A stretch of 64,000 nt of DNA from Podospora anserina (GCA_017654855.1 CM030337.1:2852001-2916000), one strand, 5' to 3'. Counted from the first letter of the stretch, positions 1,383 to 10,528 are shown. Numbers and translations are program-made. Notes: generated from the letters alone by a model not told the origin.

Positions 1383-3395
1383 TCACCGAAGGATGCTAGA
1401 AATGCACTCCTCGGAGACATACTGCGCTCTCACTATCCCAACTCCCACCCTTTTATATCCCCTGTCACCGTCTTCCTTCTGTACAATGATCATGTAATAA
1501 CCTTTCCTAGCGTCTTCCACCTTATGGTCTTTCATCTCCGCGTCTAGGGCACCAACAATAACACAATTACAATCCTCAAACCGGATCTGATCCGCTATGT
1601 CAAACCATAAAGACCCTACTTCTTCCTCTCCATCCAAAATAACATACTTTTCTTCGTTTTGTCCCATTCGGCAACTTCCACCAAAGTTCCTCACTTTGAC
1701 ATTTAGTACCGATCTATCATCGGCAAAATCAAGGTCTTCGAAGCGTGGGACCCGAAAACTTGGGTTTGGATCCAAGATAAACTCAATGCCCCCGGAATAT
1801 GCCATCCAAGACCATGATGGCACTTGATCATCATCATACTTGATCAGGGGTTTCTGCTCCTCGGTCCGCTTCCACAAAAGAAGAGAACCTAAACAAAAGC
1901 GGAAGATCCCGTACTTCGCTTTACTTTGCACCACCTTTTCCATCCGTTCAACAAGGCTGTGAATCGCAATGACCCTGTCTGTTTCATCGGTAAGACCGGA
2001 TGTCGAATATTTCTGGAATAAAAACTGTATGAATTCGATGGTACGATAATACCCACTCCGCCAGAGTCTATCTAGGAAGTGTGGATCGAGGATGAAGTAT
2101 TCCTTCCCAAACGGCCTAGAGCAAGATAAGACTTTGTACCATACGTAGTTTTTAATGATCAGACTTACGGTATAAGTTTTGTGAGCCGTTCACAAATCAC
2201 CCCGTCCCCACATTCGCAATACACATGTGACGTAGTAAAATGAATGGTTCGCCGGGACAGCACTCGTTCTTGTAAGACCCAAGCTCGTTGCATGAGAGGC
2301 CCTGCGTCGACGTCTTCGTCGAAATGACATTGGCAAGCTGAGGAGGCCAAGGTATTTTGTGCTCCATCATCTGAGAAGCGTGACTGGGATTTGAGAAAGC
2401 CATCTTTCCAGTTATGTGCTGAGGTTACGGCAATAGTACAGTAAGCATTAGCGAAAATATTTTGCATAGTGTTAGCTTGGCTTTTCCAGTCGCCACCATC
2501 TCCTTGAATGATACAGAGAGCATCAATCCAGAGATATTGTTTGCCAAGTGCTCGAGTAATTTGAACAGTATCCTGAAAGGTCTTCGGCAACTGCTCAAAA
2601 AAAAAGTCTTTCAAACGTCTGTTTTCCTTGGTATTGCAGAATTGGCGTTTTTCATCTTCGGTAGGATTGCCCCAACGGTGTGACAATACAAGGTAGTCTT
2701 CATCCAGAGATTGGTTCTCTACCAGAGATAATTTTTTGGGGTCAGAGTCACCAACAAAGATAATTCTCTTTGGCCAGAAGCTGCCCTTTCCTCGTTTTTG
2801 GGGACAGTCGTGATTGTTGTCACAGTGCTGAAGCCACTCGCGCAACAGGAGAAGGTTTGGAATGACTGGCATGAAATCTGATGAATGACTAGTGGGGAAA
2901 GAATTTGATGACTGTTTGCTCTGAAATGTCGAAAGAAATGGGTCTTTAGTTGTACGTCGCCATGATCGCTAAAGAAAACGCCGATTAGTGGGAAATGTAA
3001 ATTAGTCGGACGGATCCACTTACTTCCTACACCACCACACACACCGAGGTCAGTAATGATTCCCATCTCCGCTCTCTTGAGGGCATCCACTTACATACTA
3101 CACCACCACACACACCGAGGTCAGTAATGATTCCCATCTCCGCTCTCTTGAGGGCATCGACTTACTTCCTACACCACCACACACAACGAGGTCAGTAATC
3201 ACCATCAGGCTTCATCTACTAAACACACTTTTTATAACGTGGCTGTTATTTGAAATCGGACCATAGCTTTAAATTAGACACATACCGACTATACAAAGTT
3301 AGGTTTTATACTTCCAAGTGACAATTATCCCTTACCTCAAAGTCCCGATGAATCCGAACTCGTGCTGGAATTTTGGCAACAGACATTTCGGCCAT
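1383..3395 (-). CDS. HET-domain (heterokaryon incompatibility) protein, ~534 aa, 7 predicted exons including four 3-nt microexons
   Basis: Exons: 3395-3336, 3288-3286, 3168-3166, 3097-3095, 3026-3024, 2968-2169 and 2115-1383 (1605 nt, open frame). HET motifs: 'YLVLSHRWG', 'LPKTFQDTV', 'YLWIDALCIIQGD', 'MQNIFANAYCTIA', 'PLMQRAWVLQERVLSRRTIHF' and 'VPSWSWM'. A 53-nt GTAAGT..TAG intron (2116-2168) joins ORFs 2165-2872 and 1383-1943 in frame. The HET call is strong; the 5' exon structure is inferred from splice signals only. Confidence 0.85.
3014..3199. repeat. Tandem repeat, 71-bp unit x ~2.6; each unit is a 68-nt intron plus a 3-nt exon on the minus strand
   Basis: Units start at 3014, 3085 and 3156 and are nearly identical. 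The minus-strand unit reads GTAAGT...ACTGAC...GTGTAG|NNN. Confidence 0.95.
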
Positions 3396-4924
3396 GTTGC
3401 TCTGATAATGTCGTTTCTCCTTACACTCGGTTTGTGACAATGGCTAGTGATCAGGACTTGGAACAGTAGTTCAATTCAGCTGATAATCTTTAATGGCCTC
3501 GAAGTCCTTAGAGAAGAAAGTCTAGAGATACAAACAGGTTCTGAGGACGCGTATTTATCCGTCCTTTTGAAGTCCGTGCCCTAATGGCCTCAGGCAGCTG
3601 CCAAGTCCTTCCACATACCCTCTAGCCAATACCATTCCTTTGGTAGCCGCGAGGCACTTGATTTTCTGCCTTACTTCCAACCATTGGTTCTCGATTATGC
3701 AGGTAGATAGCGGTTGGGCCGTGATGCAGCTGGTTGGTTGTTTGCCGTGTGACACGGTTGCCGTTGCAATGATTGAAGACGTTTTCGATCCATGTTGCGT
3801 TGGTTTCTGCTTGGGGTCTGCCGGAAAATGTGAGCTACGACAATGCTTGCGATACGGGGCGGAGTCTCAACATAGCCATGGACTGCGTGCTAGACGAAGC
3901 TGGCGACGCTGCATGACGACGCCGGGTGATCATTTCAAACCACCCGCTGTACCTGTTAGCCGTGTTTTTGGTAGAGGTTGCTTGAATAACGATGCTTGCT
4001 GGGAAGAGGGGATGCTATTGCAACGGCAGCGACGACGAAATTTAACAGTGGCATCCTGCGCGGTTATCGCGCAGCGGTGGCTTGAAAACTGTGGTCTTGC
4101 TTTGTTTGGCTGTCGATTGTCCACGACACAGGCAACACGACACAGCTGAGACACAGAGAGGGGATCACTTGTGAGCGGGAGTGAGCTAGGTACGAAGGTA
4201 CTTAGGGATTCACGGTCTATATATACGGAGGAACTAGACAGCTCGTAGATAGTTCCGCAGTATGCAATCACAGCTTGTATTGCGGTATCTTGTGTTTACA
4301 TTGAGACATCTTGTTGTGCATTATTTAGCTGCAACGATCCAATATCTAGAAGTTCGCCCTCAACCGGTATCCCTTTCAGAGGTTCTGGACAGAGGATCGT
4401 CACAAGATGCCTCAATTCTTGAAGGACTGTATAGAATTAGAAGACGCATTGACTGGGCATTACAATGCAATACAGTTGAAGGGAATTTCACAAGCGCGAG
4501 TTCCCACACGTGCAAGGTCAAGAACCTGAAGAGCAATCTATATTCCCATCAACGCGTCGACGCGTTCCATGTCGTTTTTGATTTTCATCTCATTTCTTTT
4601 GTTTACATCCATATCCATGACGTGGTGCACCTGACGGCCAGTGCCAATTATTACCTTTCTTTTCCCCACCCGTTTTAGCTCAGGGGAAGATCCCAGATCG
4701 AAGCAACCATGACGTCGCGGGCAAAAGAACTGCCATATCAGAGAAAGTAAAAACAAAGTCAAAGTACAAAGCAATTAAACCCCAACTCCCACTCAAATAC
4801 CCCAGATATCCCAAACCCATTGCCAACATACATTTCAAATCCAACCATGATCGTAATCCATGACAGGAAAATCCTTCACTCCCTCCTCCAGCCCTTCCCG
4901 CGATTTGTCTTTGCCATGCGTCAC

Positions 4925-6413
4925 TCAAAGACATTGTGAATACCACACGCTTAACACGACACATTGATATGGAGATTCACAAACCGTCGATCCCAGGTGG
5001 TATATCCCACCACATGTTCCCCAGTGAGGCACCGGTGTGCCAGTCGGGGTTGACGAGCCCGATGTAGACTTGACAGACGCCGTCGTAGGCGATGGGACCT
5101 CTTCCGTGGAAAATTCAGTTGCTGTCGCGCTGAAAACAACAGTAGTTGTAATGGTAACGAATGCCGTTTGGCTGGATAGTAGGCTAGACAGGAGGCTAGC
5201 TAGTTGGCTGGATGATAGACTGGTTGAAATCGTTGTTTGGCTGGCTGTTTGCGTGGGCGGTAGACCGGATCCTTGACCAGACGACTGGCCATCACTCCCC
5301 AGCGCAGCCTGGATACTGTCCAAGAACCCAGTATTCCCATAAACCTGCGACATATCCCTTTGTAATCTGTTAGCTCTCATTCCCACACTTCCCCCTCATT
5401 AGAACCTACCACATCATCACCCCCCCAAAACTCTCAAACCCCTTCACGTACTCCACCACCCCCTTCAACACCTCCCCATTCACATACCCCCTCCCCGCCG
5501 CCTGACTCCCCGGCACCCCCAACAAAACCTTCACCCCCTTGTTCTTACTCTCCTCCCTAGCCCACCGATCCCACCTCTCAAAGTTGAACTGGCTCTCACC
5601 CTTCCCATCACCACCCCCAGAAGCCTTCCAACTATCAACCCCACACCAATTATTATAAAACTGCACCATCACAAAATCAAACCCCACCCCATCCATCAAC
5701 CCCCCCATCGCCGCATCAGGAAACGGGCACTGCGGCGCACCACTCATGTAAAACTTTTTCTTCCCACCATCCGCATCCATCAACCTCCTCAACTCCCCCA
5801 CAAAATCAACCATATTCACCGCCACAGCCTCCAAGTCAATATCAAACCCATCCACCACCGCATCCCCAAACGGTCTCTCCACCTTTGACCCCTCCTTCTT
5901 CGGTCCAAACATCTCCCATACCGCCCCCGCCATCTGGACCGCCTCGGCAGGGGAGGAAAAACCCCCTTCGGTGTAAGTTGCTCCCCCGATAGACAAGAGT
6001 ATAGATTTGTTGTGGGCCGTCTGGCAGGTTTGGATGTCTTCTTCGAGCTGAGGGCAGGAGAGGAGCTGGCTACCGGAGAAGAGGGTGCAATTGTCGCCCG
6101 CGTTGGCAAAGTTGATTGTCGTGGAGGGGGTCTTGATCGTGTAGAGGAAGGCGAGGGGGATGATGTTGATGGGGGTGTTGGCGCAGTAGTAGGAGAGGCG
6201 TTGCTGGCCGCCCGAGGTGAGTGAGATGGAGTTTTGGCCTGGGATTCAGATGAGTAGGAGAGAAAAGTTCGGGATGGAGGGGAGTTGGGAGAGAAACATA
6301 CCCCAGTAGACGGCGATGTTGTTTGAGGCGGTGGGGTCGAAGCCCGCGAGGACTTTGTTGGAGAGAGAAAGGATGATGCCGCAGAGGGCGAGGAGATTGT
6401 GAGATCGAAGCAT
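4925..6413 (-). CDS. Secreted GH18 (class III/subgroup B) chitinase with Ser/Thr-rich linker and C-terminal CBM1
   Basis: Signal peptide '[23 protein letters not shown]', then 'NIAVYW|GQNS', 'LLSIGGA', catalytic 'DGFDIDLE', 'VQFYNNWC' and 'FGGVMMW|DMSQ'. CBM1 is '[33 protein letters not shown]'. Introns 6239-6301 and 5358-5409. Confidence 0.93.
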
Positions 6414-9225: not shown

Positions 9226-10528
9226 TCAACTATCTCCCCCACCCCCATCACCCTCCTTATTATCATACGGTTTCTGCGCAAACCAAAAATAAAAGTAATA
9301 ATACCTATGCACCTTCCCATCCATAACCGCCTCCCTCACCTTCGCACTAAAGACCTCTCTCTCCACTGCATCCATCCCCAAGTTTGCAAAGGCTTTCCCC
9401 AGCGCTGATAAGCTCTGCAACGCGGCCTCTTTCACATACAGCCCAATCAACCTCATCGTTTTATCTTTAGGCCACGTTCCCACTGGTGTCTTCTTCTTGA
9501 CACAGGTAATATTGACGAAACCAGCTCGTTCAAGAAAGTTGCCCACCACAGCCGGCATGTTCAAATTCATTCCAAACTTGGCCATAGCTTCCACACATAA
9601 AGCCCAGAATTTCTTCATCACGTCCGTCTCGGGGTCCATGGTTCCGTCGTCACAACGAGGTTCCCCATGTGATTCTTGAAATTCGATCCAGCCTCCTGGT
9701 TTGAGGTGTCTGTTTGCTTTGTCAGCCTCATATTTCATCGGCAAAAAGGGGAACACATACTGATAGATCTGGTCCACCGCCTTCTGCAAATCCCTCAGCA
9801 CAAGCGCCATGCCCCTTAAATGCACAAAGTCCCAGTCTGACCCGTTCGCCCACTCGTCTTCGACATCGTCAATCATGAACCTGACATTTGGCGGCACCCA
9901 CTGTGGTTGGATCGGTGAGAGATCGAGCCCCAAGATTTCAGCCCCAGGGAACAGGTCCCCCATCTCGATAGCCCAGATTCCTGTGCCGGTCCCAATATCA
10001 ATGATCTTTTGTGGGTTGGGTCCAATGGGTGAAAGGTAGGGTTTCCCGTCCTTTCGACACAAAACAATGTTAGTGAATAATTACCTAAGGGGCAACAAAG
10101 GGGCAACCCACCGTCAACTCCATCATCATCGCATGCTTCATATCCTCCCTATTCTGCTCCTGATCATCATTTGGAATTGGGTACCTCCCATATCGATAAG
10201 AATGATATCTCCTCCCATTCTCATACGTATGTGCATAAATGCTCGACGTCACCGACGTCGAAGCCTTGGACGACCCGTCCCATCCCTCAGCCAAGAACTC
10301 GTCTTCTTCCTCAGGGCCCTCCTCAGCCTCGATTGAATCAGGGAATTGCTCTGTCTGCCGTCTCCCATCTCCTGTTTCCTGCGAAAATGCTTCATCTTCC
10401 GGTATCGGGCCCGTTGTTGACGGTTGCGGTGGTTTTGGCGACGATCTTTTCGTCTGTGGTGGTAGTGGTGGTTCTAAATGTGAGGGGTCATCGGATGGCC
10501 CCCTTTGGGGTTCTGAAAGTCCTGACAT
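9226..10528 (-). CDS. SAM-dependent methyltransferase, LaeA-like (Methyltransf_23) family
   Basis: 'YENGRRYHSYRYGRYPIPNDDQEQNRED', SAM motif 'IIDIGTGTGIWAIEM', 'GLDLSPIQPQWVPPNVRF' and 'LKPGGWIEFQE'. Introns at about 10053-10111 and 9711-9760. Confidence 0.92.

Follow-up and report, generated by a model that had tools for sequence, protein, structure and literature searches.

One of the questions raised by the HET-domain gene PODANS_6_6980 of Podospora anserina regards how the beginning of its protein is encoded. The gene lies on the minus strand of a stretch of 64,000 nucleotides (nt) (GCA_017654855.1 CM030337.1:2852001-2916000), which was analyzed as a whole and is called the window here. 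The original prediction, made from the sequence alone, described an exon of 20 codons followed by four exons of a single codon each (microexons), separated by five short introns and leading into the exon of the HET domain. By looking at assembled RNA, homologous proteins and metagenome DNA we conclude, with a probability of about 0.8 for the reading as a whole, that the 5' part of PODANS_6_6980 holds a real, expressed and most likely constitutive array of four codon-sized exons that would duplicate in tandem and encode a hinge. The coordinates, lengths and splice signals that had been described for the array all hold on the minus strand (Table 1).

The translation of exon 6 is 100% identical to the 'uncharacterized protein PODANS_6_6980 [Podospora anserina S mat+]', a protein of 478 amino acids, and the predicted HET domain is confirmed by a match over the full Pfam profile PF06985 (HET; 1-146 of 146, E 5.3e-29). 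The deposited protein accounts for no more than 88% of the exon-6 reading because its model begins at an inner ATG at position 2872, and in this respect the annotation is as blind to the array as open reading frame (ORF) finders had been predicted to be. The complete coding sequence has 1605 nt and gives 534 amino acids, and thus PODANS_6_6980 encodes a 534 amino acid protein rather than the annotated one of 478. Under the name Pa_6_6980 the gene does not appear in any paper found in the literature searched, and a role in cell death or incompatibility would be assigned to it by HET family membership alone.

RNA evidence was taken from the assembled contigs of four runs (X1, X3, X5, and X12) out of 24 listed ones, which belong to four studies. 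In all four the ordinary 53-nt intron downstream of the array is absent, at GT..AG borders, from the main contig, and therefore the runs hold spliced RNA. Junctions of the array are likewise present in the contigs of every run. The clearest is an X12 contig in which 2968 is joined to 3336 with 12 letters between them, TTCATATTCCGA, which reads TCG GAA TAT GAA on the opposite strand; this contig has a depth of 139.6, compared with 186.2 for the exon contig. In X1 two overlapping contigs, one from exon 6 (2968) through TTCATA to 3166 and the other from 3097 through TTCCGA to 3336, give the same chain. It had been stated beforehand that an untranscribed locus, or a joint of exon 1 and exon 6 that never carries inserted codons, would speak against the array; the locus is transcribed, and the X12 joint carries all 12 letters. 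A further line of evidence is P0123, a protein of 534 amino acids from an assembled contig of 1814 nt, which falls into the 90% cluster of the annotated protein. It begins with MAEMSVAKIPARVRIHRDFESEYERSWRR, reads ...RIHRDFESEYERSWRR... across the array, and contains HET as its sole Pfam domain (residues 116-258, E 2.1e-28). No other ORF of the protein collection is both complete and derived from a transcript, and P0123 includes all four codons. The mature mRNA hence joins exon 1, TCG, GAA, TAT, GAA, and the HET exon, as the RNA contigs and P0123 both show, with the four codons between the flanks GACTTTGAG and CGATCATGG. The flanking introns are complete, each with a strong 5' site, a branch site and a TAG of its own: all five start with GTAAGG, GTATGT or GTAAGT, contain CTAAC, CTGAC or CTAAT, and end with TAG.

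Could these signals be accidental? The original prediction considered five such introns in a row hard to explain by chance. What stands of this argument is that the introns are used in RNA in all four runs; what does not stand is their independence. Tandem Repeats Finder identifies a 71-nt unit (2.6 copies, 94% matching, 3014-3199), and the introns are thus not five independent events: intron 3, intron 4, the 3' portion of intron 2 and the beginning of intron 5 are copies of this unit. Three of the four microexons belong to this unit. The window has 10 matches to YAG-NNN-GTRNGT, compared with 4.9 +/- 2.1 in 100 shuffles, and four of the 10 are at the array. The explanation that splice-like signals arose by accident in a tandem repeat of the 5' untranslated region (UTR), with translation starting from 2872, can point to this common origin of three of the four units and to the deposited model. 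Yet, the exact junctions are found in RNA contigs of four studies, which refutes it at the RNA level, and the joined reading is open and matches the conserved N-termini of homologues, so that we consider it close to negligible.

The homologous proteins, counted among the best 120 matches, show what the array is inserted into. In 22 of them, by pattern, a WIHxxF-type N-terminus is followed by 1 to ~25 residues and then by SW.R. With flanks shared in this way, the coding sequence of exon 1 and of the first part of exon 6 is conserved, and the microexons occupy an insertion point of variable length. At this site P0049 has DEYE and P0033 has TEWE, where P. anserina has SEYE, and this resemblance points to a constitutive motif, as far as sequence comparison goes. 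A search with residues 1-62 of P0123 gave no match, and hence no N-termini from sister species. The AlphaFold models of P0012 and P0123 have a mean predicted local distance difference test score (pLDDT) of 84.0 and 83.4, respectively, with values below 50 for residues 1-17 of P0012 and 1-21 of P0123, and the first strand of P0123 is at residues 28-30. Such a tail of low pLDDT and the position of the first strand place SEYE (residues 21-24) at a hinge between the tail and the folded body. A Foldseek search of the P0012 model against the PDB gave no match at E <= 0.001.

Other homologues carry the intron itself in their protein models. The 68-nt intron (the cassette), when translated, gives a start of the type M.MIADLG.. 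(MVMIADLG-like), and this start was found in 11 of the 120 matches by a strict pattern and, by eye, in P0008 and P0009 as well. Since the N-terminus of these models is a translated cassette, their start lies within an intron. The models are from Sordariales and, in the Hypocreales, from Fusarium and Cladobotryum. The Fusarium falciforme model P0045 reads, in its residues 1-215, through ~9 tandem repeats of 24-25 residues that are translated cassettes; a tblastn comparison aligns them with the cassettes of the window (E 4.5e-5; 50-60% over 19-28 residues) as well as with those of a metagenome contig, L001 (E 1e-9 to 6e-5). A protein search with the same residues returned P0045 itself as the only match. 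Unit lengths divisible by three would keep the frame of such a repeat open.

L001 is one of two metagenome contigs, L001 and L002, that matched a degenerate pattern made for the 3' half of the cassette. In L001, 19 microexons and 20 introns lie between a homologue of exon 1 and the HET exon. The introns are mostly 67-68 nt long with a period of 71; 16 of the 20 start with GTAAGT and all 20 end with TAG. The exon after the array begins with ISWKR.., and its HET reading is intact and 58.5% identical to that of the window. At 1362-1364 a TAG replaces the conserved Trp codon of the exon-1 homologue (..R*IHADFQ) and the remaining gene is open, so L001 may be a pseudogene of recent origin or represent strain variation. 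In L002, at ~3250-3700 on the minus strand and downstream of it, the same cassette array and HET remnants are found in AT-rich DNA with many stop codons (GC 0.36; TpA/ApT 1.63) and with dinucleotide indices that resemble repeat-induced point mutation (RIP). It is thus shown that the intron cassette is common to homologous HET genes of other fungi, at the same site and in arrays of up to 19 units.

The cassette is conserved well beyond its splice signals. Intron 4 of P. anserina has a mean identity of 72.5% (66-81%) to 16 L001 cassettes of the same length, whereas shuffles give 56.3 +/- 2.4% and the third codon positions of exon 6 are only 52% identical between P. anserina and L001. When the 13 L001 units that measure exactly 71 nt are compared, no other window of three columns in the 71 is as variable as that of the exon (1.5 bits, against 0.44 for intron columns). 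A stable fold of the cassette was not found (z-score +1.37), nor was a conserved RNA structure, the consensus having six predicted pairs with 0 compensatory changes. The ordinary intron downstream (window 2116-2168) was also compared with L001 at ~3562-3614; a crude global alignment, for which the baseline is high and the coordinates were one base off, gave ~77%, a figure that we do not use as support; given the similar downstream intron, intron conservation may extend past the cassette.

A row of nearly identical introns, with similar units in other fungi, is also what a mobile element would leave behind, and one option is that a self-propagating family of 68-nt introns, resembling introners, was inserted here repeatedly. 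We find this very improbable. In the 64-kb window the 14-nt core of the cassette (<=2 mismatches) has three matches, all at the array, and no other copy. In both metagenome loci the cassettes occupy the corresponding site of a homologous HET gene, and the 13 models with a mistranslated cassette are all HET homologues, a count biased by the HET search from which they came. The copies follow each other strictly in tandem, with a period of 71 nt, and the missing fold and compensatory pairs add to this.

In the preferred reading, the array would grow and shrink by tandem duplication or unequal crossing-over. The 71 nt of a unit are not divisible by three, so a further copy would be tolerated only as a spliced intron and each unit would thereby add exactly one codon. 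The added codons would form a flexible hinge of variable length between the conserved WIHxDF-like N-terminal tail and the folded HET body, and an unspliced unit would shift the frame, such that full-length protein would come only from fully spliced RNA.

How the introns are removed can be followed in partly spliced contigs, which are present in all four runs. One type reads from exon 6 through GAA and TAT into a retained intron 3, a second reads exon 1, TCG, and GAA ahead of a retained intron 3, and a third has GAA and TAT joined with introns 2 and 4 still present. In an assembled form intron 3 is retained with introns 1, 2, 4, and 5 removed; in X3 and X12 intron 1 is out and intron 2 is retained. 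Since these RNAs lack different subsets of introns, the introns are removed independently, one by one and in no fixed order, as expected for intron definition. These forms lead to a second possible function, in which the row of small introns throttles or times a dangerous protein: a retained unit would cause a frameshift and an early stop, and output would need five splicing events. The unit of 71 nt and the introns of 47, 117, 68, 68, and 55 nt are, apart from the 117 nt (3 x 39) of intron 2, not divisible by three, the partly spliced forms have depths similar to or above that of the fully spliced junction, and the cassette is conserved far beyond its splice signals, all of which fits such a gate. 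However, the depths are non-quantitative and inflated by the repeated words of the introns, the inner ATG at 2872 could still yield a HET protein from unspliced RNA, and the exact exon size of one codon is left without a reason. We regard a splicing gate as possible, though rather unlikely.

A number of observations weigh against a constitutive hinge array and should be set out together. The library type of the four runs is not on record and RNA is concluded from their splice joints. The joint of 2968 to 3336 is also found in X3 and X5, where the inserted letters are not displayed, so constitutive inclusion is not proven by them, and P0123 may derive from one of the four runs and hence perhaps is not independent. 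In X3 a joint of 3168 to 3336 (after cut +1; depth 8.08) is bordered by GT..AG and would leave out microexon 1, with the letters between given as 'not known'. Contig depths can neither quantify nor rank isoforms, and contigs drop rare variants; in all four runs the contigs that retain intron 3 reach or exceed the depth of the fully spliced junction, inflated as these depths are. The models of the exon-1 tail are of low confidence, and no structural role beyond 'hinge' can be read from them. The cassettes of Fusarium and other genomes are deduced from protein models alone, L001 and L002 may be dead genes, judging by the TAG of the former and the RIP-mutated look of the latter, and the hypervariable codons of L001 fit diversification no worse than they fit a neutral hinge.

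Diversification by splicing was the function that the original prediction had proposed: microexons would be included or skipped in combination, with up to 16 mRNAs, and one gene would give a repertoire of N-termini for a cell-death effector. Every skipping pattern preserves the frame, the mini-exons of the Tuber nank genes are described in print as alternatively spliced, the X3 joint fits exon 1 joined to microexon 2, and L001 has 19 units with hypervariable triplets between conserved introns. This proposal is so far not supported. The sole fully spliced junction with its letters displayed (X12) and the only full-length assembled ORF both hold all four codons, among assemblies that drop rare variants, and the displayed contigs of the four runs show no direct join of exon 1 to exon 6 without inserted letters. 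Four codons yield at most 14 short peptides, SEYE is similar to the DEYE and TEWE of homologues at the same site, and the X3 joint is the one whose inserted letters are labelled as not known. We therefore consider a splicing-based diversifier unlikely, more so than the gate, and return to the constitutive array, in which inclusion of the four codons is most likely, at least for the main part, constitutive in P. anserina. A wider role can be suggested tentatively, though we consider it rather unlikely: the array may be a codon-insertion module of the HET cell-death family across Sordariomycetes, in which selection for the splicing of 3-nt exons holds the intron and the triplet is free, or driven, to vary. 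Arrays of ~20 units would then diversify the hinge in the germ line by gain, loss and shuffling of units, and possibly by skipping in RNA.

Table 1. Positions of the exons, introns and tandem repeat of PODANS_6_6980 in the window, with the evidence for each
Feature	Position	Strand	Evidence
Exon 1, ATG and 19 codons (MAEMSVAKIPARVRIHRDFE)	3336..3395	-	Sequence; RNA contigs; N-terminus of P0123; absent from deposited model
Intron 1, 47 nt, GTAAGG..CTAAC..TAG, unique sequence outside the repeat	3289..3335	-	Joint 3288->3336 in X3 and X12
Microexon 1, TCG (Ser)	3286..3288	-	Sequence; RNA contigs; P0123
Intron 2, 117 nt, 5' part unique, 3' part a cassette copy	3169..3285	-	Spliced in contigs with ..TTC CGA.., retained in others
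Microexon 2, GAA (Glu)	3166..3168	-	Sequence; RNA contigs; P0123
Intron 3, 68-nt cassette, GTAAGT..ACTGAC..TAG	3098..3165	-	Spliced and retained forms in 4/4 runs
Microexon 3, TAT (Tyr)	3095..3097	-	Sequence; RNA contigs; P0123
Intron 4, 68-nt cassette, one base different from intron 3	3027..3094	-	Sequence; repeat finding; RNA contigs
Microexon 4, GAA (Glu)	3024..3026	-	Sequence; RNA contigs; P0123
Intron 5, 55 nt, cassette-like start, remainder unique, CTAAT and TAG	2969..3023	-	Sequence; repeat finding; RNA contigs
Exon 6, RSWRR.. through the HET domain; annotated ATG inside at 2872	2169..2968	-	Sequence; Pfam; homology; RNA contigs
Ordinary intron, 53 nt	2116..2168	-	Joint 2114->2168 (cut +1) in 4/4 runs
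Last exon, up to the stop codon	1383..2115	-	Sequence; P0123
Tandem repeat of 71 nt, 2.6 copies, unit of 3-nt exon and 68-nt intron	3014..3199	-	Tandem Repeats Finder

Upstream of the array, a YAG-NNN-GTATGT match at 3621-3619, ahead of the ATG, was rejected as a microexon since RNA contigs cross it unspliced. RNA contigs are continuous from exon 1 upstream to beyond 3800 (window 3336 onward; the X1 record has 928 nt), which represents either a long 5' UTR or an overlap with the 3' end of the transcript of the upstream chitinase. Within 3452-3611 some RNA contigs end loosely at 3452, 3507, and 3611, and 79 nt are skipped from 3507 to 3587 with non-canonical ends; their matching parts contain three mismatches and two gaps, and they are probably related sequence from elsewhere in the genome. 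The chitinase-like gene (4925-6245, minus strand) is of the GH18 type and has a C-terminal fungal cellulose-binding domain (CBM1), and a methyltransferase-domain ORF (Methyltransf_23, E 1e-17) follows at 9229-10080 on the same strand. On the other side, convergent with the HET gene, a fragment of a HET-NACHT (HNWD-like) NOD-like receptor (NLR) lies at 367-1007 on the plus strand. It comprises the last part of a HET domain, then a linker and the Walker A and B motifs of NACHT (Pfam NPHP3_N, E 1.6e-14), and with an in-frame stop at 606-608 and a reading that ends shortly after Walker B it is probably a pseudogene.

Our results correct a gene model in the reference fungus for heterokaryon incompatibility, and a whole HET subfamily is systematically mis-annotated, with models that start in an intron ('MVMIADLG...'), omit the microexons or, in one Fusarium model, read through ~9 intron units. 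In the literature searched we found no report of microexon arrays in HET genes or in Podospora, and the terms 'microexon' and 'micro-exon' are absent from the main text of PMC9801653. The genetics of Podospora together with the existing RNA data offer a tractable system for how the spliceosome defines an exon of one codon. Another question that is raised here is why the intron is more conserved than the exon that it flanks.

Several known systems resemble this array in part. The micro-exon genes of schistosomes have rows of very short symmetric exons that are safe for the frame and were proposed as a source of protein variation; their exons are of 6-36 nt, encode secreted parasite proteins, and have documented variation by alternative splicing. 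They are unrelated to PODANS_6_6980, and the likeness is that the frame is kept under any pattern of inclusion. Introns can also be gained by tandem duplication or from introner-like elements, in which new and nearly identical introns arise as copies of existing sequence. Compared with introner-like elements, the units of PODANS_6_6980 carry an exon of one codon and stay tandem at one site of one gene family, with no dispersal seen in the 64-kb window or among the metagenome pattern matches. Single conserved 3-nt exons are described in animals for Drosophila homothorax (micro-Ex8; PMC7392893) and human MAP4K5 (PMC8632122), where, as in PODANS_6_6980, the spliceosome defines an exon of one codon and a single residue is added. 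These are isolated microexons with long flanking introns and regulated inclusion, whereas in PODANS_6_6980 the introns are tandem, short and nearly identical. In filamentous ascomycetes a microexon switch is described for Xlr2 of Trichoderma virens, and the abstract states that functional microexons were previously undescribed in filamentous fungi (PMC11121469); Xlr2 is a transcription factor with one regulated microexon and PODANS_6_6980 has a codon-sized array.

The closest system is the nank (NACHT-ankyrin) family of Tuber melanosporum. The mini-exons of this family had been mentioned in the original prediction and do exist in print, as cited by three papers; they are codon-sized exons of 3 bp (Iotti et al., 2012, Fungal Biology 116:261, as cited in PMC9815663, PMC4986451, PMC13449251, PMC3689799, and PMC10197012). 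Both cases have many 3-bp exons in a row, belong to a fungal family of the non-self or immune type, and are invisible to ORF finders. The exons in our data are exactly 3 nt long, their introns are canonical spliceosomal introns, and they are used in RNA, with four in a row in the window and 19 in L001. The two cases differ in the host, which is an NLR in Tuber and a stand-alone HET gene here, with HET as the only domain and no NACHT-ankyrin architecture. In the cited descriptions the Tuber array is located in the C-terminal ankyrin sensor, whilst that of PODANS_6_6980 occupies residues 21-24 near the N-terminus, ahead of the HET domain. Alternative splicing of mini-exons is reported for nank; in PODANS_6_6980 there is one possible skip of microexon 1, in one of the four runs and from contigs only. 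The array of PODANS_6_6980 is made of a conserved 68-nt intron cassette in tandem units of 71 nt, and the fungi are Sordariomycetes (Podospora and, by inference, Fusarium and Cladobotryum) as opposed to a truffle. If the tentative module holds, the Tuber NLRs would be joined by a second, independent case of exon arrays that extend fungal non-self genes codon by codon, found in the main genetic model for fungal incompatibility. The array extends codon-sized exons from the NLR sensors of truffles to HET effector genes, where the diversifying or gating of immune-type proteins becomes directly testable.

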